Of a DNA stretch of 64,000 nt, positions 13,731 to 64,000 are shown piece after piece. The translations under genes were made by a program, and so were the position numbers. The notes beneath the pieces are model-generated. The model was given only the letters and a program-made list of their open reading frames with translations, was not told the origin of the DNA and made no database searches. Source of the stretch: an uncultured Acidimicrobiales bacterium (GTDB lineage: Bacteria > Actinomycetota > Acidimicrobiia > Acidimicrobiales > Aldehydirespiratoraceae); the NCBI GenBank assembly GCA_951812975.1, contig CATOTC010000005.1, positions 242,773-306,772 on the forward strand, given 5' to 3'. Every line of letters starts with the position of its first letter. The stretch's first letter is position 1.

Positions 13731-13811
13731 GCTTGTACTGTTTTCATTAATTCTATGATATGTAAAGGCTTTACAAGGGTCACTGTCACACCCTGTGTCT
13801 AAGGTTGTGTC

Positions 13812-15218: not shown

Positions 15219-15300
15219 CCGACGCCCAACAACAGCACGCAGTCGGCGCCGGCGACGCCGATCCGTCAAACAGAAAACCCAGACCGGCACCGAACAACAC
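15148..15300. repeat. ~65-bp tandem repeat x2.3 spanning the HNH gene stop codon
   Basis: CAACAGCACGCAGTCGGCGCCGGCGACGCCGATCCGTCAAACAGAAAAC occurs at 15165-15212 and 15230-15277, with matching CTGACCGxCxCC leaders. Unit 1 contains the TGA stop. Confidence 0.8.
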
Positions 15301-15522
15301 CAACACCCCTCCGGCCCTCGGACCGACACACGATGACGCAGACACCTCCTAATCGACCACCCGGACAAGCCCTGCGGGGTTGAGACGCCGAAGCGGTCAA
15401 TGGAGCAGGCTGGCGATATATCCGACAAAAATGATCGGAATTAGGTGCTTTAGTTGACCCAGTAGGTTATGGTGTCCTGGAATCCTGACTGTTCGGATCG
15501 GGATTATCTGGATTGTGCAACC

Positions 15523-16158
15523 ATGGCTCCATACCCGGTCAACCTGGAACTCAGCGGTCAACCCGTCCTCGTCGTCGGAGGCGGACCGGTCGCGGCCCGC
15601 AAGGTAGCAGGCCTGCGAAGCGCTGATGCTCGCGTGACTGTCGTCTCCCCCACTGCAGTCCGCGGGATCAGCGCTGACCCCGACGTGCGTTGGTTGGCAC
15701 GCCCGTACCGGCAAGGAGAGGTATCGGCCTACCGTCTCGCCGTCACAGCCACCAACGACCCCGAAGTCAACGCCGCGGTGAAGGCCGACGGCGACAGGGC
15801 CAACGTGTTCGTCAACTCCGCCGACGACCCCTCCAACTGCTCGTTCACGCTTCCCGCCGTGGCCCGCCGAGGCGACCTGCAGATCACCGTGTCGACCGGC
15901 GGCCGCAGCCCCGGCCTCGCCCGATGGTTGCGCCGAAGACTCGAGCGTCAACTCGACGAGGGCTACGAAGGGCTCCTCACGCTGCTGGCCGAGACCCGGG
16001 CCGAGGCCCGCGCCAGATTCGGCACATCGGAGATCCCCGGATGGGACGCCGCGCTCGACGACGGACTGCTCGAACTGGTGCAGCAGAACCGAACGACCGA
16101 AGCCCGAGAACGTCTTCACGACCACCTCGGCCTGACGCCGGAAGGTGTGCTCACATGA
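15523..16158 (+). CDS. precorrin-2 dehydrogenase / sirohydrochlorin ferrochelatase (siroheme synthase N-terminal domain, SirC/Met8-like)
   Basis: LVVGGGPVAARKVAGL NAD-binding motif typical of the CysG N-terminus. Confidence 0.8.
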   Translation: MAPYPVNLELSGQPVLVVGGGPVAARKVAGLRSADARVTVVSPTAVRGISADPDVRWLARPYRQGEVSAYRLAVTATNDPEVNAAVKADGDRANVFVNSADDPSNCSFTLPAVARRGDLQITVSTGGRSPGLARWLRRRLERQLDEGYEGLLTLLAETRAEARARFGTSEIPGWDAALDDGLLELVQQNRTTEARERLHDHLGLTPEGVLT

Positions 16159-17159
16159 CCGTTTACCTCGTCGGTGCAGGGCCGGGAGACCCCGACCTGC
16201 TGACCGTCAAGGCCACCAGACTGCTGCAGCGCGCCGATGTGGTCGTCTACGACCGCCTCATCGAGCCGGCAGTGCTCGACCTCGCCCCGCCCTGGGCCGA
16301 GATGATCGACGTCGGCAAGCGCCCCGGCGCACCCACGGACTCCCAGACCCGAATCAACGATGTGCTGATCGACCGGGGCCGCCGGTTCGACTGCGTCGTC
16401 CGTCTCAAAGGGGGCGACCCCTTCGTGTTCGGACGCGGCGGGGAGGAGGCACTCGAACTGCGGGCCGCAGGCATCGACGTCGAGGCGGTACCGGGGATCA
16501 CCTCTGCATTAGCGGCACCCGCCGCGGCCGGGATACCCGTCACCATGCGAGGCGTTAGCAGCGGTTTCACCGTCGTCACCGGCCACCAGGACCCCAACAC
16601 CGACCAATGGCTCGACTGGGACGCCCTCGCTCGCACCGGCACGACCCTGGTGATCCTGATGGGCGCATCACGCACCACCCTGATCTCGCAGCGGCTCATC
16701 GCCGCCGGAATGGCCACCGACACGGCCGTCGCCATCGTCTACTCCGCTACGACCGACCACGAGAGCGTCACAAGAACCACCCTCGCCGAACTTCCCGACA
16801 TCGAAGTAACCAACCCGTCGACGCTGGTGATCGGCTCAGTCGCCGCCCAATCCGTGATCAAAACGGAACTGACTCAGTGCTTAGCGGAGGTGACCATGGC
16901 CGCAGCCGGGCTGAATCGAGGCGAAACCGGGCTGGCCCCGGCCGTAGACGCAATCCCCGCCTCTCCCGGCCATTTCAACACCAACGCGCTCGCCAACCAT
17001 CACGAACTAGCCAACCATCAACAACCCGCCAACCGACACGAACCCGCCAACAACCACCAACCGGCCGGCAACGGGGAAGCGGCCGGCTCTCAAGAACCGG
17101 CCCACCGCCAAGAGACGACCGACCGTAATGAACCGACCCGGAAAGGGGCCCTGAGATGA
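16155..17159 (+). CDS. cobA: uroporphyrinogen-III C-methyltransferase with C-terminal low-complexity tail
   Basis: ATGA overlap with upstream gene. VYLVGAGPGDPDLLTVKA and VVRLKGGDPFVFGRGGEE motifs. Confidence 0.9.
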   Translation: MTVYLVGAGPGDPDLLTVKATRLLQRADVVVYDRLIEPAVLDLAPPWAEMIDVGKRPGAPTDSQTRINDVLIDRGRRFDCVVRLKGGDPFVFGRGGEEALELRAAGIDVEAVPGITSALAAPAAAGIPVTMRGVSSGFTVVTGHQDPNTDQWLDWDALARTGTTLVILMGASRTTLISQRLIAAGMATDTAVAIVYSATTDHESVTRTTLAELPDIEVTNPSTLVIGSVAAQSVIKTELTQCLAEVTMAAAGLNRGETGLAPAVDAIPASPGHFNTNALANHHELANHQQPANRHEPANNHQPAGNGEAAGSQEPAHRQETTDRNEPTRKGALR

Positions 17160-18949
17160 CCCTCCTCGAAACGACCAGAATCGAAACACGGCCCGTCGAT
17201 CCCGACATTCAAGCGGACATCGACAAGTTCCGCGACGTTCTCGCCCAATACCGGAGAGGCGAAGTCTCAGAGGATGTGTTCCGAGTCTTCCGACTGACCA
17301 ACGGCATTTACGGCCAACGGCAGGGCGGAGACAACCATATGGTTCGAGTCAAGGTTCCCTACGGGTCCATGGACCCCGAACAGTTCGAGATGCTGGCGTT
17401 CATCGTCGAGCGCTACAGCCGAGGCTGGGCCCACATCACCACCCGACAGAACCTCCAGTTCCACTTCGTGCAACTCGATCAGATCCCCGACGTGCTCGAC
17501 CATCTCGCGGCAGTGGGCATGACCACCCGCGAAGCCTGCGGCGACACCGTTCGCAACGTGCAGGGCTGTCATCTCGCCGGTGCCTGCCCCCATGAGAACC
17601 TCGACATCACGCCGTGGGCGGAAGCGGCCTACCGCCACTTCGTGCGCAACCCGTTGAGTCAACGACTGCCCCGCAAGTTCAAGATCAACTTCTCGGGATG
17701 CGAGACCGACTGCGGTCAGGCCATGTTCAACGACGCCGGTGTGATCGCCACCACCCGCACCCTCGACGACGGAACGACCGAGGCAGGATTTCGAGTCTTC
17801 GTCGCCGGAGGACTCGGCACAACGCCGTTCCCCGCCCAGGCAATTGAAGAGTTCACCCGCAAGGAGGAACTGCTCCCCACACTTGAAGCGATCCTGAGGG
17901 TCTTCGACCAGACCGGCAATCGAGACAACAAACTCCGCGCCCGGATGAAATGGGTGGTCGAACAACTCGGAATCGACGAGGTTCGACGGCGCGTGCTCGC
18001 CATCCGCAAGTTCCTGCTCGCCTCCTCGTCGTACCCAGGTGGTCTTCCCACCGAAGTGCGAGTCGACGGCGATGCGCCCGCCGGGATAGATGCCACCGCG
18101 AACATCACGAAGGTCGGGCAGGGAATACCGGTCAGCATCGGTGGGGCCTCCCCGTACGACAAATGGTTCAGCGCCAATGTGGTGCGGGGAATCGCCTCAG
18201 GTCAGGTGTCTGCCTACGCCTGGGCGCAACTCGGAGACATCACAGCTGAACAGTTCCGTGCGATCGCCGCGATCAGCCGGGACTTCGAAGCCGACATCCG
18301 CCTGACAAACCGTCAGAACCTGATCATCCGGGGACTCGACGAGTCGCAACTGCCCGAACTCTACCGACGGTTGGATGCCGCAGACATGGCACGACCCGGC
18401 GCGGAGTTGGTCAGAGACGTGGTGGCCTGTCCCGGTGCCGACACCTGCAACCTCGCGGTCACCCAGAGTCGGGGACTCGCCAAAGCGATCGGCGACGCCC
18501 TCGAGACCGAAGGACTCGCCGAAGTGGCCGGTCTGCGAATCAACATCAGTGGATGCCCCAACTCCTGCGGGCAGCATCATGCGGCCGACATCGGATTCTT
18601 CGGGGCCGAGCGCCGGGCCAACGGGCGTTCAGCACCCGGCTATCAGATGATGCTCGGGGGCTACATCGGGCAGGAACAGGCACACTTCGGAACCAAGACC
18701 CTGCGACTGCCGGCAAAGAACGCGGCCGAAGCGGCGGTGCGGGTTGTTCATCGTTTCAACGACGAACGCACCGTCGGCGAGTCGTTCCGTGCCTGGATCG
18801 AGCGTTCCGGTGGGGTGAAGAGCATCGCCGCGGGACTCAAGGACCTCGACCAGTTCCCGGCCTATGACGATGACCCGGAGTTCTACACGGACTTCGACGA
18901 GGCAGGCCCCTACGAAGCAGTCGTCGGCGATTCGGAGTGCGCCACCTGA
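17156..18949 (+). CDS. ferredoxin-dependent sulfite (or nitrite) reductase hemoprotein, siroheme/[4Fe-4S]
   Basis: ATGA overlap with cobA. Cys clusters CGDTVRNV.C...CP and CPGADTC...CPNSCGQ. Two nitrite/sulfite reductase repeats. Confidence 0.9.
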   Translation: MTLLETTRIETRPVDPDIQADIDKFRDVLAQYRRGEVSEDVFRVFRLTNGIYGQRQGGDNHMVRVKVPYGSMDPEQFEMLAFIVERYSRGWAHITTRQNLQFHFVQLDQIPDVLDHLAAVGMTTREACGDTVRNVQGCHLAGACPHENLDITPWAEAAYRHFVRNPLSQRLPRKFKINFSGCETDCGQAMFNDAGVIATTRTLDDGTTEAGFRVFVAGGLGTTPFPAQAIEEFTRKEELLPTLEAILRVFDQTGNRDNKLRARMKWVVEQLGIDEVRRRVLAIRKFLLASSSYPGGLPTEVRVDGDAPAGIDATANITKVGQGIPVSIGGASPYDKWFSANVVRGIASGQVSAYAWAQLGDITAEQFRAIAAISRDFEADIRLTNRQNLIIRGLDESQLPELYRRLDAADMARPGAELVRDVVACPGADTCNLAVTQSRGLAKAIGDALETEGLAEVAGLRINISGCPNSCGQHHAADIGFFGAERRANGRSAPGYQMMLGGYIGQEQAHFGTKTLRLPAKNAAEAAVRVVHRFNDERTVGESFRAWIERSGGVKSIAAGLKDLDQFPAYDDDPEFYTDFDEAGPYEAVVGDSECAT

Positions 18950-51035: not shown

Positions 51036-51677
51036 TCAGTCGAGCCAAGGTTCGTCGAGCTCCCAGGGCTCGATCCTCTCAGGTTCGGCAGCCTGCGAGT
51101 GGCGCGGTTCGGCCATTGCCTTGGCCGCGATGACGCCGCCCAGCATGCCGAACAGGTGCCCCTCCCAAGAGATGAAGTCCTGGGGCACGATCCCGGCCAC
51201 CAACCCGCCGTAGAGCATGATCACCAACAGCGCCGAGGCCAATGCCCTTACGCGGCGTTCGAAGACCGCCGCGGCGAGGATCGCTCCGAAATACCCGAAC
51301 ACCACCCCGCTGGCACCGATGTGGTTGCCGAATCCCGCGAGCGCCCAGGTCAGGCCGCCCCCGACGACTATCACCGTCACTGTCACCCACGCCCAGTAGC
51401 GCATCCCCCGCACCGCGACCAGTCCACCGAGAATCAGCAGAGGCAGCGAGTTCGAGGTGACGTGGCCGAAGTCGGAATGGAGGAACGGCGCGAAGGCGAT
51501 GCCGTCGATCCCTTCTCGGCGCCGGGGAAGGATGCCGTTGCCCTGAAGCCGATCGTCGAGCGCGAGCGTGTCGACGATCTCGATTCCCCACATCACCGCC
51601 AGGGCCAGGACCAGCAGACCGACCGGTGTCCACAGCAGTCGCCAGAACGAGCGCCTCGGTTCTGCGGATTCGGCCAT
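51036..51677 (-). CDS. rhomboid family intramembrane serine protease
   Basis: GASG catalytic serine motif and downstream His in a TM helix. About six TM helices. Confidence 0.8.
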   Translation of the reverse strand: MAESAEPRRSFWRLLWTPVGLLVLALAVMWGIEIVDTLALDDRLQGNGILPRRREGIDGIAFAPFLHSDFGHVTSNSLPLLILGGLVAVRGMRYWAWVTVTVIVVGGGLTWALAGFGNHIGASGVVFGYFGAILAAAVFERRVRALASALLVIMLYGGLVAGIVPQDFISWEGHLFGMLGGVIAAKAMAEPRHSQAAEPERIEPWELDEPWLD

Positions 51678-51757
51678 GCCTCATCGTAGATGCGGCTCGC
51701 AGGAGAATTTCGCTAAGTTGTCCGCTACCGGGTCAACGACCAGCAGGAAAGACGGAG

Positions 51758-52708
51758 ATGAGCGACAACCCTCAGCCGCTGGGAGGCAACGAGACGCCGC
51801 GGTTCGGCGGAATCGCCACGTTCATGCGCCTTCCGGCAACATCGTCGCCCGAGGATCTGGATGTTGCCGTGGTTGGGGTGCCCTTCGACATCGGTACCTC
51901 GAACCGGCCCGGTGCAAGGTTCGGCCCCCGAGGAATCCGTGAGGAGTCGGTGCTGCTGCGTCCGTACAACATGGCCACACGGGCCGCTCCCTTCGACAGT
52001 CTGCGCATCGACGACGTGGGCGACGTGGCCACCAACCCCTACAACCTGGCCGATTCGATCGGCCGGATCACCGCGCACTTCGAGGAGCTGCTGCGGCATG
52101 ACCTCGTGACTGTCGCCATGGGTGGCGATCACACCATCGTGCTGCCGATTCTTCGGGCCATGGCCGCCAAACACGGGCCTGTCGGATTGGTGCACATCGA
52201 CGCCCACACCGACATCAACGACACCATGTTCGGCGAGAAGATCGCTCATGGCACCCCGTTTCGCCGTGCCGTCGAGGAGGGCCTGCTCGACGGCCCGCGC
52301 GTCGTCCAGATCGGTATGCGCGGCACCGGTTACGCCGCGGATGATTTCGACTGGTCCCGGGAGCAGGGGTTCCGGGTGGTGCAGGTCGAGGAGTGCTGGC
52401 ATCTGAGCCTCGATCCGCTGATGGCGGAGGTGCGTGACCAACTCGGGGAGGGACCGGTTTATCTGAGCTTCGACATCGACGGCCTCGACCCGTCGTTCGC
52501 CCCCGGTACGGGAACGCCGGAGATCGCCGGCCTGACCACGATCCAAGCCCTTGAGATCATCCGTGGTTGCCGCGGCCTGGACCTGGTGGGCTGCGACCTT
52601 GTGGAGGTGGCTCCCGTCTACGACGCCAGCGGAGCCACTTCGCTGACCGCCGCCAACATGCTCTACGAGATGCTCTGCGTCCTACCCGGGGTCGAGTATC
52701 GGAAGTGA
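51758..52708 (+). CDS. agmatinase/ureohydrolase family protein (arginase fold)
   Basis: Mn-binding motifs GGDHTI, DAHTD, SFDIDGLDP. AGGAAAGACGGAG RBS. Confidence 0.9.
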   Translation: MSDNPQPLGGNETPRFGGIATFMRLPATSSPEDLDVAVVGVPFDIGTSNRPGARFGPRGIREESVLLRPYNMATRAAPFDSLRIDDVGDVATNPYNLADSIGRITAHFEELLRHDLVTVAMGGDHTIVLPILRAMAAKHGPVGLVHIDAHTDINDTMFGEKIAHGTPFRRAVEEGLLDGPRVVQIGMRGTGYAADDFDWSREQGFRVVQVEECWHLSLDPLMAEVRDQLGEGPVYLSFDIDGLDPSFAPGTGTPEIAGLTTIQALEIIRGCRGLDLVGCDLVEVAPVYDASGATSLTAANMLYEMLCVLPGVEYRK

Positions 52709-53565
52709 CCAGCGGCCGAAATCCAACGGCGGACGACGAGACCGAGAACCGGTCAAGACAGCGTGACCTGTATGTCGATTTATTGATGGGGTGCCTCACC
52801 CGCGAGCTGTTCCTGACTGAGGAGACCCACGACGTCGATCTCTCGGAATGGCCAGGTGACACCGACATGCTTCGGTCAGTTCTCAAAGCCAACAGATGGC
52901 GTCTGATGAGGACTGGCGGCCGACACGCTGCTCGAGCCGAAGGCCACGACTGGCCGCCGACCGCCGAGACCATGGTCGGCCGGCAGCGGCTCGCAGATGT
53001 CCGTTGGTGCATTGATCAGGTAATGGCCGAAGGCGTGGTGGGTGACTTCATCGAGACCGGCGTATGGCGCGGCGGGGTGACGATCCTGATGAAGGGGATG
53101 CTCGAGGCGTGGGGCGACACCCGACGGCGCGTCTGGGTGGCCGACAGCTTCCGCGGCCTGCCCGTGCCCAATGTCGAGGAATACCCTGCCGATGAGGGAC
53201 ATGACATGTCCAAAGTGAGAACGCTGCAGGTGTCGGCCGACGAAGTCCGCGCCAACTTCGAACGGTACGGACTCCTCGACGAGCGGGTGTGTTTCCTCGA
53301 GGGCTGGTTCGCCGACACCCTGGCAACCGCTCCGATCGACCGGCTCGCGATCCTGAGGCTCGACGGCGACCTGTACGAATCAACCACCGATGCCCTGATT
53401 GCGCTGTACCCCAAGCTCAGCGTCGGCGGATATGTGCTGGTCGACGACTACGGCGCCTGGGAACCCTGCCGTAAGGCGGTGGACGACTACCGGGCGACCC
53501 ATGGAATCACAGACGAGATCGTGCCTGTCGACTGGACCGGCATCCACTGGCGGCGCAGCAACTGA
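52705..53565 (+). CDS. TylF/MycF-family SAM-dependent O-methyltransferase (macrocin O-methyltransferase family)
   Basis: GDFIETGVWRGG SAM motif, LRLDGDLYEST, VLVDDYG. GTG start overlapping the upstream stop (GTGA). Confidence 0.75.
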   Translation: MTSGRNPTADDETENRSRQRDLYVDLLMGCLTRELFLTEETHDVDLSEWPGDTDMLRSVLKANRWRLMRTGGRHAARAEGHDWPPTAETMVGRQRLADVRWCIDQVMAEGVVGDFIETGVWRGGVTILMKGMLEAWGDTRRRVWVADSFRGLPVPNVEEYPADEGHDMSKVRTLQVSADEVRANFERYGLLDERVCFLEGWFADTLATAPIDRLAILRLDGDLYESTTDALIALYPKLSVGGYVLVDDYGAWEPCRKAVDDYRATHGITDEIVPVDWTGIHWRRSN

Positions 53566-53566
53566 C

Positions 53567-54256
53567 ATGGGCGAGATCGGTACCTACTACGAGTTGTTGC
53601 GTCTGGCCCATGATGCGCTCAAACCTCGGCGCTATCTGGAGATCGGGGTCCACAAGGGTCATTCGCTGGCGCTGTTGAGGGCCGGGACCCACGCGGTCGG
53701 GGTCGATCCTGAGCCAATGGTCGAGAACCCTCCCGGCAACGCCATGATCGTCTCGGCGACCTCCGACGACTTCTTCGGCGATCCCGACCTGCAGGCGTTG
53801 CTCGAAGGTCCGCTCGACCTGGCCTTCGTCGACGGACTCCACCTCTTCGAGCAGGCCCTGCGAGATGTGGCCAACGTGGAACGCCACAGCAGCCCCGACG
53901 GCATCATCCTCATACACGACTGCCTTCCGATCGACGCGGTGACCTCGGCCCGGGAGCAGACCACGATGGTCTGGTCCGGCGACGTATGGAAGGTTGTCGT
54001 GGCTCTGCGCCGCCACCGGGAGGATCTGACCGTCACGACCGTCGATGTCGAACCCACCGGTCTGGCGATCGTCTCCGGCCTCGACCCCGACAACACTGTG
54101 CTGTTCGACCGCTACGAAGCGATCGTCGACGAGCTGGCGGACCTTTGCTACGACGATTTGCAGGCCCTCGGCCGCGACGAGGCGCTCAACGTCGTTGATG
54201 CCCACCCAGAAACGGTCAGGGCGCTCCTCACCACTGGCCGCGTCAAGACTGCCTGA
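53567..54256 (+). CDS. class I SAM-dependent methyltransferase (Methyltransf_24 / cephalosporin-hydroxylase-like)
   Basis: YLEIGVHKGHS, AFVDGLH and IILIHD motifs. ATG 1 bp after the upstream stop. Confidence 0.75.
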   Translation: MGEIGTYYELLRLAHDALKPRRYLEIGVHKGHSLALLRAGTHAVGVDPEPMVENPPGNAMIVSATSDDFFGDPDLQALLEGPLDLAFVDGLHLFEQALRDVANVERHSSPDGIILIHDCLPIDAVTSAREQTTMVWSGDVWKVVVALRRHREDLTVTTVDVEPTGLAIVSGLDPDNTVLFDRYEAIVDELADLCYDDLQALGRDEALNVVDAHPETVRALLTTGRVKTA

Positions 54257-54345
54257 GGTCTCCGCCTCGCCCGGGGATCGACTGAAATGGGTCGTGGGGC
54301 TAAAGTCGGGGATTCGAGACGGTCGAAGACACGGAGAACAGAACA

Positions 54346-55431
54346 ATGCCACAAACGGTCAAAGGAGTAATTTCAGCGGCGGTTGGTGAACCGGTCACGT
54401 TGACCGACATCGTGATCCCCGATCCCGGGCCGGGAGAGGCAGTCGTGGCGATCCAGGCTTGCGGTGTGTGCCACACCGACCTCCACTATCGCGAGGGCGG
54501 TATCAACGGCGATTTCCCGTTCCTGCTCGGCCATGAGGCCTCCGGCATCGTCGAATCCGTCGGCGAGGGAGTGACCGAAGTCGCTCCGGGTGACTTCGTG
54601 ATCCTCAACTGGCGGGCGGTTTGCGGCGACTGCCGGTCATGCAACCGCGGCAGGCCGCATCTCTGTTTCAGCACGCACAACGCGGAACAGACGATGACGC
54701 TCACCGACGGCACCGAACTGTCGCCCGCCCTCGGAATCGGGGCATTCGCGGAGAAGACCCTCGTTGCGTCCGGTCAGTGCACCAAGGTCGACCCCGAGGC
54801 CTCCCCCGCTGCCGCGGGCCTGCTGGGTTGCGGGGTGATGGCTGGCATCGGTGCGGCCATCAACACCGGCGGTGTAGGCCGCGGCGACAGCGTCGCGGTG
54901 TTCGGTTGCGGAGGTGTGGGCAACGCCGCCATTGCCGGCTCGAAACTGGCCGGGGCATCCAACATCATCGCCGTCGACATCGACGACGGTAAGCTCGAAC
55001 TGGCGAAGGGTTTCGGCGCCAACCACACGATCAACTCCCGCGAAGAGAACGCGGTTGAGAAGATCCAGGAATACACCGGCGGGTTCGGCGCCGATGTCAC
55101 CATCGACGCCATCGGCCTGCCCGAGGTGTACCGGCAGTGTTTCGAAGCCCGGGACCTTGCCGGCACCGTCGTGCTCGTCGGTGTCCCCACACCCGAGATG
55201 AGAATCGAACTGCCCTTCCAGGAGGTCTTCGGTCGAGGCGGGTCGCTCAAGTCGAGTTGGTACGGCGACTGCCTGCCGAGCAGGGACTTCCCGATGCTCG
55301 TCGACCTCTACCGTCAGGGCCGGCTCGACCTCGACGGCTTCGTGTCTGAGACGATCGCGCTCGACGGTGTGGAAGAGGCGTTCCACAAGATGGAACGGGG
55401 CGAGGTTCTGCGTTCGGTGGTCATCATCTGA
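54346..55431 (+). CDS. class III zinc alcohol dehydrogenase / S-(hydroxymethyl)mycothiol (formaldehyde) dehydrogenase
   Basis: GVCHTD Zn motif. [12 protein letters not shown]. Structural-Zn Cys cluster. GCGGVG Rossmann. Confidence 0.85.
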
Positions 55432-56060
55432 TGCCCGTCGAACTCGTCACGACCGACGGAATCTTCGCGCTCGACGGAGGCGAATGGGAGGTCACCAACA
55501 ACATCTGGCTGGTCGGCGACGATCGGGAGGTCGTGATCTTCGACGCGGCCCACGATCATCGACCGATTGTTGACGCCGTCAACGGCCGCCGGGTGAACGC
55601 AATCGTGTGCACCCACGGCCACAACGACCACATCAACGCTGCGGTGGCCCTGCGTGAGGCGGTCGACGCACCGATTCTGCTGCATCCCGATGATCAGATG
55701 CTATGGGATGCGGTGTTCCCCGAAGACTTGACCGACGGCGCTCTGAGGGCGGGGGAGACGATCGGTGCCGGTGGCCACACTCTCGGGATCATCCACACTC
55801 CGGGGCATTCCCCTGGTTGCTGCTGCTTCTACGACGTGGACGCTCAGCGGGTGATGTCGGGCGACACGTTGTTCTGCGGCGGTCCCGGGGCCACCGGACG
55901 CAGCTACAGCGACGAACCGACGATCCTGCGCTCGATCCGCGACCGTCTGCTGACCCTCCCCGGTGGCACCACCGTCCACACCGGCCACGGTGACACCACC
56001 ACCATCGAAGACGAGCGCCAACGGGTCCTCGACCGCATCAGCGAACTCGGCCTGACCTGA
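55431..56060 (+). CDS. MBL-fold metallo-hydrolase (partner of the formaldehyde dehydrogenase; S-formylmycothiol hydrolase-type context)
   Basis: CTHGHNDH motif. ATGA overlap with upstream gene. Confidence 0.8.
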   Translation: MPVELVTTDGIFALDGGEWEVTNNIWLVGDDREVVIFDAAHDHRPIVDAVNGRRVNAIVCTHGHNDHINAAVALREAVDAPILLHPDDQMLWDAVFPEDLTDGALRAGETIGAGGHTLGIIHTPGHSPGCCCFYDVDAQRVMSGDTLFCGGPGATGRSYSDEPTILRSIRDRLLTLPGGTTVHTGHGDTTTIEDERQRVLDRISELGLT

Positions 56061-56095: not shown

Positions 56096-56791
56096 TCAGG
56101 GACTCCAGAGGTTGAGCAGTTCGGTGGCAGCGAACCAATGGCGGTTACGGCCCGACCCGTTGCTCTCGACATAGACGCGGGACACGACACCGCACGACGC
56201 AAGTGCCGTCAACGCGGTACGCCCGCTGCGTTCACTGACTCCGAGCAGCTCGGCCACATCACCGGCGCTCAGGACCGGGTGCGCCGGCAGATGGGCGAGC
56301 AGGCCCCGCACGGTGTGATCGGCTCGGAAACCGGAGATGGCTTGTTCCCATCGAGCAATGAGTGCTCGGATCCGATCATATATCTGGTCGGTCGTGAGGG
56401 CGGCCTTCACAGCGACCTCCGCAAACCAAGTGATCCAGGGGTCGGATGTTCCCTGTTGAAAAAGGTGGAGTCCCGCCCATCCGGCGTTGCCACCCCCGCC
56501 CGTTCGTGCCGCCACCACCACAGATTCGATCGGCTCGCGCAGCCCCTCAATTCCTGACGACGCCATCCCTTCATTCCGCAGCAATAGCCTGGCCATCGGC
56601 TCCCAATAATCCTGCATCCGCAGTTCGGACAACCGAAGAGCAGCACACGCTCGCTCTCCAGCCCGGATTGTTGATCCCGACAGATCGAAACGCCGCTCCC
56701 CGAGCAGTGCAGGAACCCACGTCCGGACCAGACGTCCGTTCCATTCCGCATCTACCTCGCGTCCCGGCAAGCCTTCCGAAACTATGTCCAT
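56096..56791 (-). CDS. Fic-family-like protein (Fic_N region + C-terminal wHTH; canonical HPFx(D/E)GNGR motif degenerate)
   Basis: SSGIEGL N-terminal Fic_N-type motif. HLFQQGTSDP sits in place of the catalytic motif. The C-terminal LSAGDVAELLGVSERSGRTALTAL is HTH-like. Confidence 0.4.
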   Translation of the reverse strand: MDIVSEGLPGREVDAEWNGRLVRTWVPALLGERRFDLSGSTIRAGERACAALRLSELRMQDYWEPMARLLLRNEGMASSGIEGLREPIESVVVAARTGGGGNAGWAGLHLFQQGTSDPWITWFAEVAVKAALTTDQIYDRIRALIARWEQAISGFRADHTVRGLLAHLPAHPVLSAGDVAELLGVSERSGRTALTALASCGVVSRVYVESNGSGRNRHWFAATELLNLWSP

Positions 56792-57159: not shown

Positions 57160-57484
57160 CGAGCTGTGGCTGGTCGATTTCGGTGAGCCGCATCCCGGTG
57201 AACCCGCCTTGGTGCGACCGGCTCTCGTGCTCGGTCCCCCCGACTACTTCGGCAGTGGATTCCCGCTGGTCATCGTTGCCCCTCTGACGACAGCGGACCG
57301 CTCTCTGTCCCTTCACGTCGAAGTGCAGGCCACAGCTCAGACTGGCTTACGTCAGACAAGTTTCGTCCAGTGCGAGTTGATCCGGTCCATAAACGGAACA
57401 CGACTCCTCGAACGACTCGGCACAATCGACCTCGACACAGCACGAACCGTGGACCAAATCGTCAGAGTCCTCCTCAATCACTGA
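57146..57484 (+). CDS. PemK/MazF-family type II toxin (mRNA interferase)
   Basis: MazF-fold features: GEPALVRPALVL, PLVIVAPLTT, SFVQCELIRSIN. 112 aa. Confidence 0.75.
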   Translation: MASVDELWLVDFGEPHPGEPALVRPALVLGPPDYFGSGFPLVIVAPLTTADRSLSLHVEVQATAQTGLRQTSFVQCELIRSINGTRLLERLGTIDLDTARTVDQIVRVLLNH

Positions 57485-58953
57485 ACCCTACGGTGTGAAG
57501 GTGATGCCCTGAACGGCCACGGGGTGCCGATCAGTTCTTCGGCCACGGCAGCGGCGGCGAATTCGGGATCATCGACAGATGCCACGGCGCGGCTTCCGGA
57601 AGGGAGGTCCACAATTGCTCGCACACCGGACGGCTCCATGCCGTTGTAGACGACGGTGTAGGTTGCCACGGTCCCCTCGCCGGTGGGATCCTCGTCGAGA
57701 GGAACCTCTGCAGTAGCGGCTCTCGCCTCATCGGCCAGATCGGCGATCAGCAGACCCGCGGCGGGGGGTTCGGTGCTCCAGACGGTGAGTCCCGGTTTGG
57801 TCAACAGTCCACTCACAGCGGTGACCGCACCGAAAGCACCCGGCTCGGCCCGGAGCTGATCGATCATCGCAACCGTGGCCTGAAACACAAAGTTGTTGAG
57901 CGGGCCACCCGCAAACGCCATGCCCCCGGTGAGAGTGCAGACCCGGTCAGGATTCACCTCCAACTCCGACTGCTGAACCGCAACGGCCGCAGGGAAACAG
58001 CTGTAGAGCTCGATGTGCTCCACCTCAGCGACACGGCGACCGATGTGCATTGTCGCCGCGGCACCCAACACCGCCATCGACGGCCAGCGGTGCAGTTCGC
58101 CGCGGCGCGACAATGAGAGCGACATCGACGACTCGAGCCCCACATGGGGGAAGACCCAGCGGTCACGAGGCACGCCCACAGACTGAGCGGTCCCAGCCGA
58201 GCACAGGACCAGAGCGGCAGCCTGATCCACTCCCCACTGGGAGTTGTGCCACTTGTTGTACGGAAAGGCCATGGGACGGTTCGCCGGTGCAGGATCACGG
58301 ATCTCCTCCGGCCGCATCGGCTCACCGAAAGCGGCCGGAGGATTCAGCTGTGCGACCTGGTTGAAGCTGTGCCAGCGCCGAGCGATCTCGTCTCGGTGCC
58401 GGCCCAGTGTCCAGCCGTGAGCAGCTCGGCGAGCATTCTCGATCATGGCGTACTGCTGGACCGGGACGACCGCACCGATCTCTTTCTCCGGGCGGGCGAC
58501 GATCTCGCCACTGGGGCTGAACTCCTCGTCGGGCACCAGACCGCCCTGATCGTGGTCCGGAAGTTCCAACCCGGCCCTGCGGGCTAGGTCATCTCGATGT
58601 TTGGTCTCCCCGCCGCAGACCACCGCAATGTCGAACGCTCGGGAACGGATCGCCTCGAACGCCAAGTTGATCAGTGTCTGCTGGGGAATCCCCACCTCCA
58701 CCGCAACCGTATGGGGATCTGCGCCCACCGCCTCCCCGATTCGACGGGCCGCGTCCGGCAACCTGGAGAGCCCGCGAGTGGCGCCGATCCAGCCGATCCT
58801 AGGACCGAGACCAGTCACGCCACTGTCGCTCAGCGCGGCTCGCAGCGCCTCGGTCATCAATTCTGTGGTGTCGAGGCCGGCGGCGGGATCAGCGAGCCGC
58901 TGATCAGCCGTCCCCGCGCCGATCAGCACCACCGTGTCGGATTCGTAAATCAT
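57478..58953 (-). CDS. thiolase-like protein (Ltp/SCP-x-type) with C-terminal OB-fold-like extension
   Basis: Thiolase-fold motifs (VVCGGETKH, CFPAAVAV, GGMAFAGGP). Confidence 0.7.
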   Translation of the reverse strand: MIYESDTVVLIGAGTADQRLADPAAGLDTTELMTEALRAALSDSGVTGLGPRIGWIGATRGLSRLPDAARRIGEAVGADPHTVAVEVGIPQQTLINLAFEAIRSRAFDIAVVCGGETKHRDDLARRAGLELPDHDQGGLVPDEEFSPSGEIVARPEKEIGAVVPVQQYAMIENARRAAHGWTLGRHRDEIARRWHSFNQVAQLNPPAAFGEPMRPEEIRDPAPANRPMAFPYNKWHNSQWGVDQAAALVLCSAGTAQSVGVPRDRWVFPHVGLESSMSLSLSRRGELHRWPSMAVLGAAATMHIGRRVAEVEHIELYSCFPAAVAVQQSELEVNPDRVCTLTGGMAFAGGPLNNFVFQATVAMIDQLRAEPGAFGAVTAVSGLLTKPGLTVWSTEPPAAGLLIADLADEARAATAEVPLDEDPTGEGTVATYTVVYNGMEPSGVRAIVDLPSGSRAVASVDDPEFAAAAVAEELIGTPWPFRASPSHRRVQ

Positions 58954-59063
58954 TGAGTGCGGACCCTACTGTGGGGCCTCCGTTTCCGACGATTTCGCGG
59001 TTCCAACGACTTGACGGTTCCAACGATTTCGACCCGAACCCGCACAACTGGGAGACTCGTTCT

Positions 59064-60194
59064 ATGACTGAGCTACTCGAAGCCGCTCGTGACCTCCGCA
59101 CGACGCTTGATGCCGAGGGTGCCAAAGCAGAAGCCGAAGGCACTCCCATGACCGACGAGGCAGTGAAGCTCTGCCGCGAAGCGGGTCTGTACGGCGTCCT
59201 CGTGCCCAAGGACGTCGGCGGCGCGGAGCTAACCTTCGACCAGTCCCTCGACGTGTTCACCGAACTCGCCCGTGCTGACGGCTCGATCGGCTGGGTGGTC
59301 ATGGCCAGCAACACCGCAGCCTGCTATTTCGGGTCGTGGTCGCCTGCTTCCTTCAGCGATGTGATGTTCGCCGACGGAGTGCCACTGGTAGCCGGACAAT
59401 TCGCTCCCAACGGCACCGCGGTGCCATGTCCCGAGGGCTACCACATCACCGGTGACTACTCGTTCGGATCCGGGCTGCAACACGCCGAATGGGCCGGATG
59501 CGGGTCTTTCAGCGCGCCGACCGAAGGCGACCCCGACTTCCTGTTGGCGGTCGTCCCGATAGCGGAGGCCGAGATCACCGGGAACTGGCACGTGATGGGA
59601 CTGCGTTCGACCGCATCGTACGACTACAGGATCGACAGCATCGTGCCCGAGGACCGGACACTGTCCTTCTTCGGATTCACCAAGCACCGGGGCGGGCCCG
59701 CCTACAACCTCGGAGTGCTGTGCATCACCGAAGTCGGCCACGCCGGTTGGGCACTCGGGGTCATGCGCCGGGCCATCGACGAAGCCACCGCGCTGGCCAA
59801 GACCAAACAGCGGATGACCGGAAAGTCGACCCTGGCCGATGACCCCCGCTTCCAGTACGACCTGGCCGAAGCCGAGAGCCTCTTCCGTGCCGGCGATCTG
59901 TGGATTCGTAACGCCTTCTGCAAAACCGAACAGTCAGCGATCAACGACAATATCGACCAAGCCGCCATCAACGAGGCACTTCAAGCCACTGCCTGGTTCA
60001 CCCAGCAGTCAGCGCAGGCGATTCAAACCCTGTATCGCCACATCGGAACGACAGCTCTGCGCGACGGCGGCTTTCAGCGCTGCTTCCGCGACGTCCATGC
60101 CGGAAGTCAACACGCAATGGTCAGCCCCACGCACTCTTACGCTTTCGCCGAGGCGATGATCGCCCCGGCACCAGAGTCGGCGCTCGAGTTCTAG
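59064..60194 (+). CDS. acyl-CoA dehydrogenase type 2 / flavin-dependent monooxygenase family protein
   Basis: Homology starts at MTELLEAARDL (ATG 59064). ACAD N-terminal and middle-domain features. Confidence 0.75.
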   Translation: MTELLEAARDLRTTLDAEGAKAEAEGTPMTDEAVKLCREAGLYGVLVPKDVGGAELTFDQSLDVFTELARADGSIGWVVMASNTAACYFGSWSPASFSDVMFADGVPLVAGQFAPNGTAVPCPEGYHITGDYSFGSGLQHAEWAGCGSFSAPTEGDPDFLLAVVPIAEAEITGNWHVMGLRSTASYDYRIDSIVPEDRTLSFFGFTKHRGGPAYNLGVLCITEVGHAGWALGVMRRAIDEATALAKTKQRMTGKSTLADDPRFQYDLAEAESLFRAGDLWIRNAFCKTEQSAINDNIDQAAINEALQATAWFTQQSAQAIQTLYRHIGTTALRDGGFQRCFRDVHAGSQHAMVSPTHSYAFAEAMIAPAPESALEF

Positions 60195-60201
60195 CACCGG
60201 C

Positions 60202-61032
60202 TCAGGGAGAAATGCTGGTGAGGTCGTCGCCGACGACGATCTCACCGCTGAAATGCCGTGCCGCGATCGCTCGCCACTCGTCGCACTGCCCGGGTTGGGG
60301 GGCCGGTACGAGGTGCGTCAGGACCAAGGTCTTGACATTGTTGCGCTCAGCTGTCTGAGCGGCCTGCTCGACGCTCGAGTGATAGTCGAGGATGTCCTGC
60401 ATGCGCGCCATGGGTACCAGCTTCACCAGATCGTCACGGATGACGGTCTGCACATAGACGTCGGCGTTGCTGGTCAGATTGTCGACTCCAGCGCAGGGGA
60501 TCGTGTCGCCAGCCAGAGCCACGACTCTGCGGTCCCGCTCTACCCGATACCCGACGGTGGGCTCCACAGGAGCATGCGCCGTGGCATGCACGCTTACCTG
60601 CATCGAACCAAGCTCGAACGAATCGCCCGCTGTCACCTCGCACACTTCGACCGCAGGCTCCCAATTCAGGTCATCGTGGTGGGCGATCCGGAAACCGATG
60701 TCGGGTCCGAGAGCATCGAGAGTGCGCTCCACGAATCGTTTGATCCCTACGGGACCCCAGACCCGAAGCGGCCGGGATTCGGTGGTCATGACCCACTGGG
60801 TGGTGATCACATCGTTCAGCGCACAGACGTGGTCACTGTGCAGGTGGGTGATGAGCACACCCGATAGCAGCACTGGCATCGAACCGGCCGCCGCCATGCG
60901 CATGACACAACCGCGTCCGGCATCGACGAGCACCTGTTCAAGGCCACCTTCGCCGGTCTTGAGCAGCGTCGCGGGACCAGCCCTGTTGGGGTCGGGAATC
61001 GGCGAACCGGTCCCGAGCAGAACGACTTCCAT
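60202..61032 (-). CDS. MBL-fold metallo-hydrolase (RNase Z/ElaC-like)
   Basis: ITHLHSDH motif. Start at MEVVLLGTGSP. Confidence 0.75.
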   Translation of the reverse strand: MEVVLLGTGSPIPDPNRAGPATLLKTGEGGLEQVLVDAGRGCVMRMAAAGSMPVLLSGVLITHLHSDHVCALNDVITTQWVMTTESRPLRVWGPVGIKRFVERTLDALGPDIGFRIAHHDDLNWEPAVEVCEVTAGDSFELGSMQVSVHATAHAPVEPTVGYRVERDRRVVALAGDTIPCAGVDNLTSNADVYVQTVIRDDLVKLVPMARMQDILDYHSSVEQAAQTAERNNVKTLVLTHLVPAPQPGQCDEWRAIAARHFSGEIVVGDDLTSISP

Positions 61033-61045: not shown

Positions 61046-63646
61046 TCAGTCGACGCCGGTTGCAACCGGGCTCTGGTCTTGGGCTTGCCGTTTGGACAGC
61101 ACCCTCAGCATCATCTCTTTGGCCACCATCGGCGCGGCGTTCTGGTTCTGGCCGGTGATCAGATCCCCGTCGACGACCACATGGTTGGCGAACATGTCGC
61201 GGCGTCGATGGGTGCTCTGGAAGTCGGCACCGAGCCGGCGCAGTTCGGTCTCAGGGTGCTGCGGGGTCGCACCGATACCGAGTTCTTCGACCTGCTTGTC
61301 GGTGACCGCGGTGAGTGGACGGCCCTTGACCAGCGGCTCCCCGTCTGCGGTCTTCGCCTTCAGCAGACCGAGCGGCCCGTGGCAGACCCCGCCGATCACC
61401 TTGTTCGCCGCAGCGGCGACGGTGACCTGTTCACCGACCACATCCGAGGTGCCGAGGTCCCACGCCGCCCCCCAACCACCGGCGAAATAGACGACGTCGT
61501 AGTCGTCCATGTCGAGGTCTCCGATGGCCAGGCTGTTGCGGACCTTCTCCTTGGCCTCGTCGTCGGCCATGAACCGGTCATCGTGATGGCAACGAAAAAT
61601 GGGATTGAACGACTTCGGGTCGAATGGGATGTCGCCGCCCTTGGGGGAGGCGACATCGACTTCCATGCCGGCATCGCCGAACTCGTAGTAGGGAACGGTC
61701 AGCTCCGAGCCGAACACACCGGTGGGTTTGCCGACCTCGAGCGTCGCCTGGTTGGTCGCGACGATGAGCGCACGGTGGCCCTTTAAGTCGAGCTTCACCG
61801 ACTCCGGGTCCTCCGGGTGCAGGCCCGCCTTCTGAAGCAGGGTTCGCACACCACGCGCCGGCAGCGGCGGTCGCTTGGGTTTCGGGCGTTCCGCTCGGCG
61901 CTGCGCAGTCGGCCAATCCGCGTTGCGTGCGGGGATTCGCTCGCGTCGGATTCTCTCGAGACTGTCCTTCAACATCTCCATCACCTCCAGAGATTCGGGA
62001 TTCTCCCATTGGTTGTGCGCTTCAGCCGGATCATCACTGAGGCAGTAGAGCTCCCATTGGTCTGGGATCGGCTCGCTGCGATACACCGGTCCCGCCGCGG
62101 TACGCGCCGAAAGTTGCCGCACGTGGGGTTCGGTCCAAGCAGCGGGATCGTCGAACGTGCGGACCAGCTTCCACAGGCGACCGTCGAGGTGACCGACCAC
62201 AGCCTCAAGGTTGGTTGCTGCATGGGACGGGACCTTGATCTGCAACGGGAACGGGGCATCAACCCGGCCGCGTGCCGCCAGCATCGCCGCGCTCGAACCG
62301 TCGCCTTCCAGCATGTTGTCACGGGTCATCAGATAGACCGGTCCGTCCGGTGCCTGCGACGGCGACGACAGCACACCGCTCAGGTCCCGGCCCGGCAGGG
62401 AATGGACTTCAGAGTGCGTTCTGGCCAGCTCAGCACCGAGCGATGCCTCGTCGGCTCCTGTGAGTCCCAGCAGCGTGGGCAGCAGGTCTATGTGGCTGGT
62501 CGGGGTGTCGACGACCGCCGCGCCGGTGGCTTCGGCACCGACACGCACGATCTGCAACGGCACCCGCGTGGCCTCGTCGTAGAGTTGATACCACTTCTGG
62601 TGCAGGCCTCCGTGTGAACCGAGCAGATCACCGTGGTCGGAGCTGAACACCAGAACAGCGTCTGTGCTGCCCCCGTCGGTGACCGCACGGCGAACCCGGT
62701 CGATCGGGGTGTCCACATCATGGTGCAGGCGGTAGTAGGTCTGCCGATAGCGCTCGGCGTTCCCTAGATAAGCCCGGCGGATCAGCGGGGCCGGGCCGTA
62801 TGCCGAGTAGTAGCCGTCGCGGTAGGCCGACTGCAGCGCCGGTTTGGTTGAGAGGTCTTCGTCGTCTGTGGGTGACGCGGGAATCGGAGGCGGCTCGGCC
62901 AACGACGGTGCCAGCGTGTTGCCTCGCCTGCGCTGCATCGCCAGGATCGGCCAGAGCACGATGTCGTGGGGATTGACGAACGAGCAGATCAACAGGAAGG
63001 ATCTGGCCGCTTCGGGGTCGCCATCGGCCCGGCGCCTGTAGCGGTCCTGCAGCCATGCCACCGCCCGGTCCGCGTAGATCGGGTCCCGTACATAGCCCGT
63101 GTCGGACCAGTGGCCGCCGTGGGGTTCAGGGCCCACCCAGCCTGAGAAGCCGAACTCGTCGAGCGGATCCGCGGCCAGGTAGGCGTCGACGGCTTCTGGG
63201 ATGATCTCTCCGGCGGAATTGTTGGTGCGCAGGCGCTGACCGTCGACGATGAGGTCGGCGTGGCTGACATGCCATTTGCCGACATAGGCAGTGTCGTATC
63301 CTGCGGCTCGGAACCAGTCGCCCATTGTGGGCACCTCATCGGGTCTGAGCCAGCGCATCCTGCTGTCGGTCGCCTGCTTGCCGAGTCCATCGGTCTGGGT
63401 GACACCGTGCACGTCGGGGTAGTGGCCCGTCAGCAGGCTCGGGCGGCTCGGGACACAAGCGGTCGACGCCACATAGTGACGCTGAAAGTCCACACCATTG
63501 TCGGTGAACCAGCGGCGGCCGACGAGATGCCGTTCACGCCAAGTTTGGACCTCGGCTGTCTCGTAGGGCGGCGCGGCCCGCTCCTCGTCGGTGAGCAGGA
63601 TCACTATGTCGGGCTTCAACACAATGTCAGGCTGTGGGTCGGACAC
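61046..63646 (-). CDS. sulfatase (formylglycine-type, CxPSR) fused to C-terminal DJ-1/PfpI-family domain
   Basis: N-terminal CVPSRPSLLTGHYP sulfatase signature. C-terminal ~230 aa carries DVVYFAGGWGAAWD...GGVCHGPLGLL DJ-1/PfpI features. Confidence 0.8.
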   Translation of the reverse strand: MSDPQPDIVLKPDIVILLTDEERAAPPYETAEVQTWRERHLVGRRWFTDNGVDFQRHYVASTACVPSRPSLLTGHYPDVHGVTQTDGLGKQATDSRMRWLRPDEVPTMGDWFRAAGYDTAYVGKWHVSHADLIVDGQRLRTNNSAGEIIPEAVDAYLAADPLDEFGFSGWVGPEPHGGHWSDTGYVRDPIYADRAVAWLQDRYRRRADGDPEAARSFLLICSFVNPHDIVLWPILAMQRRRGNTLAPSLAEPPPIPASPTDDEDLSTKPALQSAYRDGYYSAYGPAPLIRRAYLGNAERYRQTYYRLHHDVDTPIDRVRRAVTDGGSTDAVLVFSSDHGDLLGSHGGLHQKWYQLYDEATRVPLQIVRVGAEATGAAVVDTPTSHIDLLPTLLGLTGADEASLGAELARTHSEVHSLPGRDLSGVLSSPSQAPDGPVYLMTRDNMLEGDGSSAAMLAARGRVDAPFPLQIKVPSHAATNLEAVVGHLDGRLWKLVRTFDDPAAWTEPHVRQLSARTAAGPVYRSEPIPDQWELYCLSDDPAEAHNQWENPESLEVMEMLKDSLERIRRERIPARNADWPTAQRRAERPKPKRPPLPARGVRTLLQKAGLHPEDPESVKLDLKGHRALIVATNQATLEVGKPTGVFGSELTVPYYEFGDAGMEVDVASPKGGDIPFDPKSFNPIFRCHHDDRFMADDEAKEKVRNSLAIGDLDMDDYDVVYFAGGWGAAWDLGTSDVVGEQVTVAAAANKVIGGVCHGPLGLLKAKTADGEPLVKGRPLTAVTDKQVEELGIGATPQHPETELRRLGADFQSTHRRRDMFANHVVVDGDLITGQNQNAAPMVAKEMMLRVLSKRQAQDQSPVATGVD

Positions 63647-63649
63647 CGG

Positions 63650-64000
63650 CTAACTCCCTTCGGTTCTGCTTGAGGCACTTCGGAAGGCACCTCGGATCAC
63701 CGCCGCTTCCAGATCCCGAAGCAGGCGTCGGTTCACCGAACCCATCTGTCGGGCGAGGAGCCGGGCAACAATCTTCGTCGGCAGTTTCTTCATGGGCATT
63801 GTGGAACCTGGTTCAACCTGGGCGGTGAGCGCGAGTCGTGTGTGGTCTCCGTCGGCTCTCAGCGTCCATTTGTTGACAACCCTGCTGACCACATTCGGCA
63901 AACCGACGATCTCATAGGCGAGCGCTTCCTCGGGTTGCCAGACGATGACTCGTTCGAGCACCACGTTGGTTCTGACCTGAACTCTGCGCTCGGTTCCGAC
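63650..64000 (-). CDS. SRPBCC (START/Bet v1-like, polyketide cyclase/dehydrase family) protein, 5' end beyond window
   Basis: C-terminal 104 aa only. Weak family resemblance. Confidence 0.4.
   Translation of the reverse strand, partial: VGTERRVQVRTNVVLERVIVWQPEEALAYEIVGLPNVVSRVVNKWTLRADGDHTRLALTAQVEPGSTMPMKKLPTKIVARLLARQMGSVNRRLLRDLEAAVIRGAFRSASSRTEGS

Follow-up and report, generated by a model that had tools for sequence, protein, structure and literature searches.

A sulfatase–DJ-1/PfpI fusion protein of Acidimicrobiia carries a DJ-1 subtype linked to sulfate-ester-type hydrolases in three phyla

The window analyzed here, a stretch of 64,000 nucleotides from an uncultured Acidimicrobiales bacterium of the Aldehydirespiratoraceae (contig CATOTC010000005.1 of assembly GCA_951812975.1), encodes on its minus strand (61046..63646) an 866-aa protein in which a predicted S1 sulfatase is fused to an Hsp31-like DJ-1/PfpI module. 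The linkage of this DJ-1 subtype to sulfate-ester-type hydrolases is repeated and independent in three phyla, and because the same type of module adjoins or is fused to such hydrolases in two phyla other than that of the window, it is very probable that the sulfatase and the DJ-1 module function together as a pair. Strong purifying selection acts on the catalytic residues of the two modules. We favor, at a probability of roughly 0.55, the overall picture of a cytoplasmic enzyme with two active sites that acts on a sulfated, probably hydrophobic small molecule. Three aspects appear to be new, namely a separate DJ-1 subtype that accompanies sulfate-ester-type hydrolases in three architectures, an obligate partner gene of the SRPBCC family, and a link to metallo-beta-lactamase-fold (MBL) hydrolases of the ElaC/AtsA type.

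The fusion is a single open reading frame (ORF) in both the ORF listing and the translation, running unbroken from a GTG start at 63646 to a TGA stop at 61046-61048 with an even G+C content of 0.63-0.68, and both of its Pfam domains score above their gathering thresholds, in agreement with an earlier note on this DNA that had described a sulfatase joined to a DJ-1/PfpI domain. The division into ~620 and ~230 residues proposed there is near to the layout that we now draw from Pfam, Foldseek and homologue alignments, with PDB sequence matches in addition for the C-terminal part: an S1 sulfatase module at residues ~10-570 (61937..63619), a Pro/Arg/Lys-rich linker at residues 571-594 (61865..61936), and the Hsp31-like DJ-1/PfpI module at residues 595-857 (61076..61864), all on the minus strand. 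The start of the last module, whose opening helix is VRTLLQKAGLHPE, was set at residue 595 because unfused DJ-1 relatives already have this 'LLxxAGLHPE' helix. An AlphaFold model based on an 82-sequence alignment (mean predicted local distance difference test score [pLDDT], 83.9; predicted template modeling score [pTM], 0.73) places the sulfatase core and a beta-sheet subdomain up to residue ~570, followed by a coil at 571-594, a helix at 595-606 and the DJ-1 fold. The linker is predicted coil of low complexity and lower pLDDT, and homologue alignments reveal conserved motifs within it.

A search of 5.8 billion proteins returned 3575 matches, and details were taken from the best 120 clusters, all of which are 829-887 aa long, align over 94-100% of the query at identities of 59-95% and have the identical Pfam pair. 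Closed long-read chromosomes are among them, and the junction is free of frameshifts. The possibility that two ordinary genes were joined by a frameshift, an assembly error or the loss of a stop codon has a negligible probability and was ruled out, as it has no evidence in its favor while the open frame is unbroken throughout, the architecture recurs in all 120 of these clusters, the linker holds conserved motifs, and the fusion is intact in 81 of 84 related loci from independent assemblies that include closed chromosomes. The architecture occurs in hundreds of 90%-identity clusters, and relatives are present in at least 553 genomes, mostly of Acidimicrobiia, in a scan with one genome per species, which overturns the rarity implied by the earlier note. 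The best 80 loci, mostly full length with four ending at a contig edge, come nearly all from Acidimicrobiia (Acidimicrobiales, Ilumatobacteraceae, Microthrixaceae, Iamiaceae, the marine MedAcidi, and the sponge-associated Ca. Poriferisocius and Poriferisodalis), with a few from Nocardioides and Mycobacteriales. The closest relatives of the window, at 95-97%, are an Acidimicrobiia metagenome-assembled genome (MAG) and MAGs of Ca. Aldehydirespiratoraceae, among which is a closed 3.8-Mb chromosome. Clustering at 50% places all fusions in one full-length representative (P0121), and the fusion therefore forms one tight clade within stand-alone sulfatases of 540-690 aa, which surround it at 35-47% identity.

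Because the architecture is common and already carries names, albeit generic ones only ('sulfatase-like hydrolase/transferase' and 'arylsulfatase A-like enzyme/putative intracellular protease/amidase'), the sulfatase–DJ-1 fusion as such is not new to the databases; it is new to the literature as searched. A literature search on the pairing of sulfatases with DJ-1, PfpI or ThiJ domains found no paper, consistent with the earlier statement that no characterization of this combination was known, and the paper describing SulfAtlas makes no mention of DJ-1 or amidotransferase modules (PMC5066984).

The N-terminal module matches the Pfam Sulfatase model (PF00884) at residues 12-398 (E 1.7e-39, 136 bits versus a cut-off of 25) and, weakly yet above the gathering score, SGSH_C (PF16347) at residues 528-568. 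It comprises an alkaline-phosphatase-like N-terminal core and a C-terminal, SGSH_C-like beta-sheet subdomain (residues 479-535). The previously noted CxPSR signature was confirmed as CVPSRPSLLTGHYP at residues 64-77; within it, C64-V-P-S-R68 (63443..63457, minus strand, as for all residues of the protein given below) is invariant in an alignment of 82 homologues and is followed by PSLL-TG, which satisfies the (C/S)-x-P-x-R plus xxxx-TG pattern of S1 sulfatases. C64 would be the residue that is oxidized to formylglycine (FGly). The metal-binding motif D337-H338-G339 (62630..62638) is likewise invariant, as are D20 (63587-63589), K124-W-H126 (63269-63277), H227 (62966-62968) and K351 (62594-62596). 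Mapped here by homology and spacing, D20, K124/H126, H227, D337-H338 and K351 make up what we take to be the canonical S1 set, as derived from arylsulfatase A, AtsA and choline sulfatase, and the full set is invariant in alignments of 21 and of 82 members, the latter at 59-95% identity.

Foldseek retrieves S1 sulfatase structures at a probability of 1.00 and at identities of only 16-20%, which indicates that there is no close characterized enzyme, and a PDB sequence search with the N-terminal part matches many S1 sulfatases together with phosphonate monoester hydrolases. The module scores below the NCBIfam cut-offs of the choline-O-sulfatase equivalog TIGR03417 (88 versus 433 bits) and of the arylsulfatase equivalog NF010322 (78 versus 481 bits). 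No signal peptide or hydrophobic segment is present at the N terminus of any aligned member, and the fusion is therefore predicted to be cytoplasmic. The best explanation for these features is that the N-terminal module is a Cys-type, FGly-dependent S1 sulfatase, an activity that we infer from its residues and fold.

The C-terminal module matches DJ-1_PfpI (PF01965) at residues 647-846 (E 1.3e-13, 51.5 bits versus a cut-off of 26.6). A PDB sequence search with this part finds the ThiJ/PfpI proteins 4p5p and 1u9c at E ~1e-31, with weaker matches to glyoxalase III/Hsp31 proteins, and Foldseek returns the same two structures, 4p5p being Francisella REP24, at template modeling scores of 0.89-0.91 and 30-32% identity. 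The literature searched on 4p5p and 1u9c gives no function for either, and the REP24 papers treat crystallography methods and contain no biochemistry. The GGVCHGP string with its Cys at the nucleophile elbow, pointed out before, was found at residues 752-758, and the Cys-His dyad of the elbow C755-H756-G-P (61373..61384) is invariant across the three architectures described below. Also invariant is E648 (61703..61705), the Glu that lies beside the reactive Cys in the DJ-1 superfamily; all 82 aligned fusions retain E648, C755 and H756. Candidates for the acid of a Cys-His-Glu/Asp triad are D783 and E788 (each conserved in at least 93%) and the invariant E799, E801 and D826. Further invariant motifs define the subtype: GLHPE (61811-61825), GGWGAAWD (61457-61480), TDKQ (61292-61303), HPE (61250-61258) and GQNQN (61139-61153). 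The module falls below the cut-offs of HchA (NF003168, 40.5 versus 365 bits), DJ-1 glyoxalase (TIGR01383, 22.3 versus 131 bits) and PfpI (TIGR01382, 36.1 versus 139 bits). On these model scores, the two modules of the fusion resemble choline sulfatase, arylsulfatase, HchA, PfpI and DJ-1 glyoxalase III but lie outside those equivalogs.

Relatives of residues ~600-850 were sought in an exhaustive search of cluster representatives, which uncovered two further architectures. In Myxococcota and Deltaproteobacteria, a cluster (P0201) and ~15 others consist of fusions with a lipoprotein signal in which the DJ-1 module follows an MBL domain, in some cases with intervening MORN repeats. The DJ-1 part is 53% identical to that of the window, and the MBL part is homologous to the MBL-fold protein encoded next to the fusion in the window (29% identity, E 8e-27). 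Alpha/beta hydrolases, extra MBLs and TetR regulators are again present at these loci. No description of such MBL–DJ-1 fusions was found in the literature searched. The examples at five loci (L085 to L089, such as L085:8001-10166; clusters P0201 and P0271-P0285) are ~690-810 aa long and have as neighbors a two-component system of the OmpR type, a 600-680-aa alpha/beta hydrolase, another MBL and a TetR regulator. At one of these, L086, the fusion is followed ~1.5 kb downstream by a type III-B CRISPR Cmr gene set (11622-18157), and the MBL part of the fusion also matches the Pfam model of the anti-Pycsar protein Apyc1, which represents cyclic-nucleotide-degrading MBLs; this association involves a single locus and is probably a coincidence.

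The third architecture is a free DJ-1 protein of 283 aa with an N-terminal membrane anchor, which is abundant in marine Gammaproteobacteria (for example Halioglobus, Spongiibacter and Pseudohalioglobus) and has 5221 matches at E <= 1e-30. Its 'LLxxAGLHPE' helix comes directly after the anchor and is the same helix that ends the linker of the fusion, so that the sulfatase stands where the anchor would be. The locus of Halioglobus maricola reads sulfatase, DJ-1, DUF4345, sulfatase, a glutathione S-transferase (GST)-like protein and an acyl-CoA dehydrogenase (ACAD), with a TetR gene upstream. Among 79 loci of a marine metagenome set, 36 have at least 2.5 kb on each flank, and an S1 sulfatase lies within 2.5 kb of the free DJ-1 gene in 29 of these 36 related loci (81%), on the same strand in 28 of the 29. 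Sulfatase ORFs occur at a density of 0.41 per kb within 1 kb of the free gene versus 0.012-0.038 per kb farther out in the same loci, and 61 of the 70 sulfatase ORFs in the metagenome loci have the C/S-x-P-x-R signature. The sampled sulfatases that adjoin the free gene have signal-peptide-like N termini, as of secreted enzymes. We considered whether they might be orthologues of the N-terminal module of the fusion and rejected this, as their local identity to it is 27-29% and they fall into other S1 subfamilies. A DUF4345 membrane protein fills the slot beside the free DJ-1 gene in 23 of 36 loci, and the free DJ-1 gene usually forms a conserved three-gene unit in which a 128-aa DUF4345 membrane protein comes next and a signal-peptide S1 sulfatase last (L090:6001-9060 and L091-L169).

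We aligned 57 DJ-1 modules from all three architectures (28 sulfatase fused, including that of the window, 16 MBL fused and 13 free) and found 55 residues to be invariant over the whole set, with only ~51% identity between groups. These residues include H610, E648, Y653/Y654, D695, D717, W725, D730, C755 and H756, and further K784, Q785, H797, E799, E801, D826 and Q833-N836. Given fusion in two phyla and operon linkage in one, the best explanation is that modules of this DJ-1 subtype serve as dedicated partners of sulfate-ester-type hydrolases.

In the window, the fusion gene is the middle gene of an operon. Directly upstream is an SRPBCC/Polyketide_cyc2 gene, of which the 3' part is present before the window ends (63650..64000, minus strand). 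Its TAG stop lies 3 nt before the GTG of the fusion, and the ribosome-binding site GAAGGGAG sits inside its last codons, so that the two genes are tightly coupled. The third gene encodes a 276-aa putative hydrolase of the ElaC/AtsA-type MBL fold with an HLHSDH motif (60202..61032, minus strand), whose ATG lies 13 nt past the stop of the fusion behind GAGGAGG. For a wider view of the neighborhood, ORFs were called in the 84 related loci and clustered, and counts refer to the 81 loci with a full fusion. The SRPBCC gene is directly upstream on the same strand in 78, and precomputed gene calls agree. An ElaC-type MBL (directly downstream in 11 loci) and a TetR-like regulator are present in 53 each, a haloalkane-dehalogenase-type alpha/beta hydrolase (NF002043) in 36, a second, canonical arylsulfatase of 762 aa in 35, a 278-aa protein without a family match (directly downstream, same strand) in 32, a short-chain dehydrogenase/reductase (SDR) in 28, and an acyl-CoA synthetase in 24. 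Several of the top conserved-neighbor clusters were dropped, as they proved to be shadow ORFs, read antisense to or out of frame with genuine genes that they overlap.

The PDB matches of the SRPBCC protein are marginal (E >= 0.013) and therefore give no clue to its ligand. The best full-length PDB match of the MBL is 8gyg, labeled 'Arysulfatase' (E 2.3e-17), with RNase Z matching at 7e-15 over partial length; on the NCBIfam RNase Z model NF000806 the protein reaches E 8e-98 and 327 bits, just below the cut-off of 363. The MBL cluster has 82 members across 53 related loci, so that some loci have more than one copy, unlike a housekeeping tRNase Z. The S4 family of arylsulfatases is a clade adjoining ElaC/RNase Z, and in SulfAtlas it is a very small, proteobacterial family (PMC5066984).

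Several other genes accompany the operon in the window or its relatives. The haloalkane-dehalogenase-type hydrolase typically lies just upstream of the SRPBCC gene (e.g., L043:8374-9306, plus strand; 468 bits versus a cut-off of 265), and its position is outside the visible part of the window because the window ends within the SRPBCC gene. The 278-aa downstream protein (e.g., L084:2738-3574, plus strand) has no Pfam or NCBIfam match and by eye contains two small alpha+beta repeats resembling DUF1330/Dabb. The second S1 sulfatase near the fusion, an AtsA-like arylsulfatase of 762 aa with LCSPTR (e.g., L044:6669-8957, plus strand), has no DJ-1 module; in Nocardioides the second sulfatase has 587 aa and is divergent from the SRPBCC gene. 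Besides L044, such a sulfatase is encoded at L003 (5751-7514, minus strand), a locus that also encodes an SdsA-type alkylsulfatase (Lactamase_B plus Alkyl_sulf_dimr). Beyond the MBL gene, the window contains a divergent pair at 57478-60194, comprising a thiolase-like protein with a ChsH2-type C-terminal OB domain (57478-58953, minus strand) and an Acyl-CoA_dh_2-type dehydrogenase (58953-60194, plus strand); the pair also occurs in a 95% relative (L001), and genes of these kinds are characteristic of the degradation of steroid and lipid side chains. Farther away is a plus-strand run at 51626-56060 that encodes an arginase family protein (51626-52708), a TylF-type macrocin O-methyltransferase (52567-53565, an ORF call that overlaps the arginase), a Methyltransf_24 protein (53399-54256), a Zn-alcohol dehydrogenase (54346-55431) and a 209-aa Lactamase_B protein (55431-56060). 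The interval from this block to the thiolase-like gene holds PemK toxin-antitoxin genes, Fic and a metallophosphatase in L001; that of the window is much shorter, with a single unassigned 231-aa ORF (56096-56791).

Maturation of a Cys-type sulfatase raises the question of a formylglycine-generating enzyme (FGE) or an anaerobic sulfatase-maturating enzyme (anSME). A six-frame scan of the window for their motifs (GNVWEW and RVxRGGS for FGE, CxxxCxxC for radical-SAM proteins), performed as a motif scan and not as a full hidden Markov model scan of the ORFs, found neither, which agrees with what the earlier note had reported. Among the 84 related loci there is one FGE-like ORF (L043) and one radical-SAM-like ORF (L014), with neither type present in the other 82, and the motif scans thus rule out an FGE or anSME as a hidden neighbor. 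A missing FGE beside the fusion gene is normal for sulfatases and no anomaly, as only 1 of the 84 loci has an FGE-like ORF.

We propose that an FGE encoded elsewhere in the genome would convert the sulfatase Cys to FGly, that the SRPBCC protein would bind a hydrophobic sulfated small molecule, and that the FGly site would hydrolyze the sulfate ester of the molecule so held. Cysteine chemistry at the Cys755-His756 site could then act on this molecule or on what remains of it after desulfation, either by hydrolyzing an amide or ester through an acyl-enzyme or by converting a reactive carbonyl by way of a hemithioacetal, in the manner of glyoxalase III. From residues and gene context we infer the activities of the modules, the class of substrate, and both the timing and the chemistry of the DJ-1 step. 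Within this picture, we consider it highly probable that the protein is a real, functionally coupled enzyme with two sites; that the DJ-1 site acts on the substrate or product is a more tentative proposal, to which we give slightly less than even odds. The lipid- and steroid-type neighbors (ACAD, thiolase-like, acyl-CoA synthetase, SDR, GST-like and TetR genes), together with marine and sponge habitats, point to sulfated lipids, sterols or phenolics as substrates, which we offer as a lead and not as a finding. The earlier suggestion of a bifunctional detoxification or processing enzyme has gained independent evidence from gene fusion and neighborhood, and it keeps its hypothetical standing.

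Several observations weigh against this proposal. With the DJ-1 module under the cut-offs for HchA, PfpI and DJ-1 glyoxalase III, glyoxalase chemistry is not to be assumed. The 29 of 36 free DJ-1 loci with a nearby sulfatase are not 29 independent events, because the metagenome loci are mutually related (60-68% identity). No SRPBCC gene lies beside the free DJ-1 form in any of the 36 loci, so that a delivery step is not universal. Finally, partner sulfatases from different S1 subfamilies would fit a single compound class that is sulfated at different positions, and would equally fit a helper that is independent of the substrate.

Such a helper would act on the sulfatase protein itself, protecting, repairing or generating FGly or serving as a redox-sensitive holdase, a role that has been proposed for Hsp31 and DJ-1. 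Cysteines of the DJ-1 superfamily are reactive toward aldehydes, and a route for the maturation of Cys-type sulfatases that is independent of both FGE and anSME has been reported in E. coli. The pairing of the DJ-1 subtype with clearly different S1 subfamilies and the lack of FGE linkage at the fusion loci are also what a helper would lead one to expect. We nevertheless regard this as rather unlikely, since the subtype, with the same 55 invariant residues, is also fused to an MBL-fold hydrolase that has no formylglycine, and since the gammaproteobacterial module is signal-anchored in the membrane beside signal-peptide sulfatases, whereas bacterial FGly formation is cytoplasmic and occurs on unfolded chains. 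A broader version, in which sulfate-ester hydrolases have the DJ-1 subtype as their general accessory factor, for example to generate, protect or repair the FGly aldehyde, as an FGE/anSME-independent maturation or maintenance activity, or to clear a shared reactive by-product, would account for both the pairing with several unrelated S1 subfamilies and the absence of a linked FGE; we consider it very improbable.

The DJ-1 module could instead be a noncatalytic domain for structure or oligomerization, as in the large-subunit catalases, and the protein a dimerizing sulfatase. DJ-1/Hsp31 proteins are obligate dimers, noncatalytic DJ-1-fold domains on enzymes are known, and the pTM of 0.73 suggests a defined arrangement of the domains. 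The invariance of E648, C755, H756 and ~50 polar or aromatic residues over three phyla and architectures goes beyond what a scaffold needs, and the module also occurs as a free-standing protein, which together make this explanation improbable. A low probability also attaches to the view that the N-terminal module is another esterase of the alkaline phosphatase superfamily, such as a phosphonate monoester or phosphodiester hydrolase, that the MBL is a phosphodiesterase, and that the operon acts on a phospho-ester. FGly-bearing phosphonate monoester hydrolases (4upk, 2vqr and 2w8s) are indeed among the matches, the MBL neighbor reaches E 8e-98 on the model named 'ribonuclease Z', and identity to any characterized sulfatase is only 16-20%; yet sulfatases provide the best domain models and the majority of the closest matches, the MBL has an arylsulfatase as its best full-length structure match and stays under the RNase Z cut-off (327 versus 363 bits), and the recurrent neighbors are further S1 sulfatases. 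Action on a phospho-ester is compatible with the overall picture of a two-site enzyme, and the two are not mutually exclusive.

To our knowledge, most members of the sulfatase and DJ-1 superfamilies, both of them large, are without a known substrate. There is continuing debate over the chemistry that DJ-1/Hsp31 proteins perform in the cell, and linkage to sulfate-ester-type hydrolases in three phyla provides a concrete, testable handle on this branch of the DJ-1 superfamily. The carriers are abundant marine, sponge-associated and wastewater Acidimicrobiia as well as marine Halieaceae. If the proposed two-site enzyme is real, a two-step pathway for sterol, lipid or phenolic sulfates would bear on the turnover of marine organic sulfur; if the module is instead a helper of the sulfatase, it would touch on the question of FGE-independent sulfatase maturation.

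Compared with characterized systems, the N-terminal module shares the fold, the C-terminal subdomain, the C-x-P-S-R signature and the complete catalytic set (Asp, FGly-Cys, Arg, Lys/His, His, Asp-His and Lys) with the S1 sulfatases of SulfAtlas, such as BetC (6fny), P. aeruginosa AtsA, Silicibacter SpAS1/2 and the Bacteroides carbohydrate sulfatases. BetC is also cytoplasmic and of the Cys type, as is predicted for the fusion. The fusion differs from this group by long insertions at residues ~130-300 and by its C-terminal DJ-1 module, which we found on no characterized sulfatase. The DJ-1 module has the fold, the elbow Cys-His and the Glu of the Hsp31 class (4p5p, 1u9c, Candida Glx3 4lru, yeast Hsp31 1qvv and E. 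coli HchA 1n57) but is set apart by the 'AGLHPE' helix, by GGWGAA(W/F/Y)D, VTDKQ, HPE and GQNQN, and by its constant linkage to a hydrolase or a membrane anchor. For the S4 arylsulfatase/ElaC-RNase Z clade (P. carrageenovora AtsA and 8gyg), the likeness concerns the MBL neighbor and the MBL part of the Myxococcota fusions, which share HxHxDH and Lactamase_B_2, and not the sulfatase–DJ-1 fusion; the match is remote, and the neighbor scores higher on the RNase Z model. Large-subunit catalases such as E. coli HPII carry an appended C-terminal domain of the DJ-1/GATase1 fold and in this resemble the fusion, but in the catalases the catalytic Cys-His of the domain has been lost, whereas the fusions retain it without exception and their module has free-standing counterparts.

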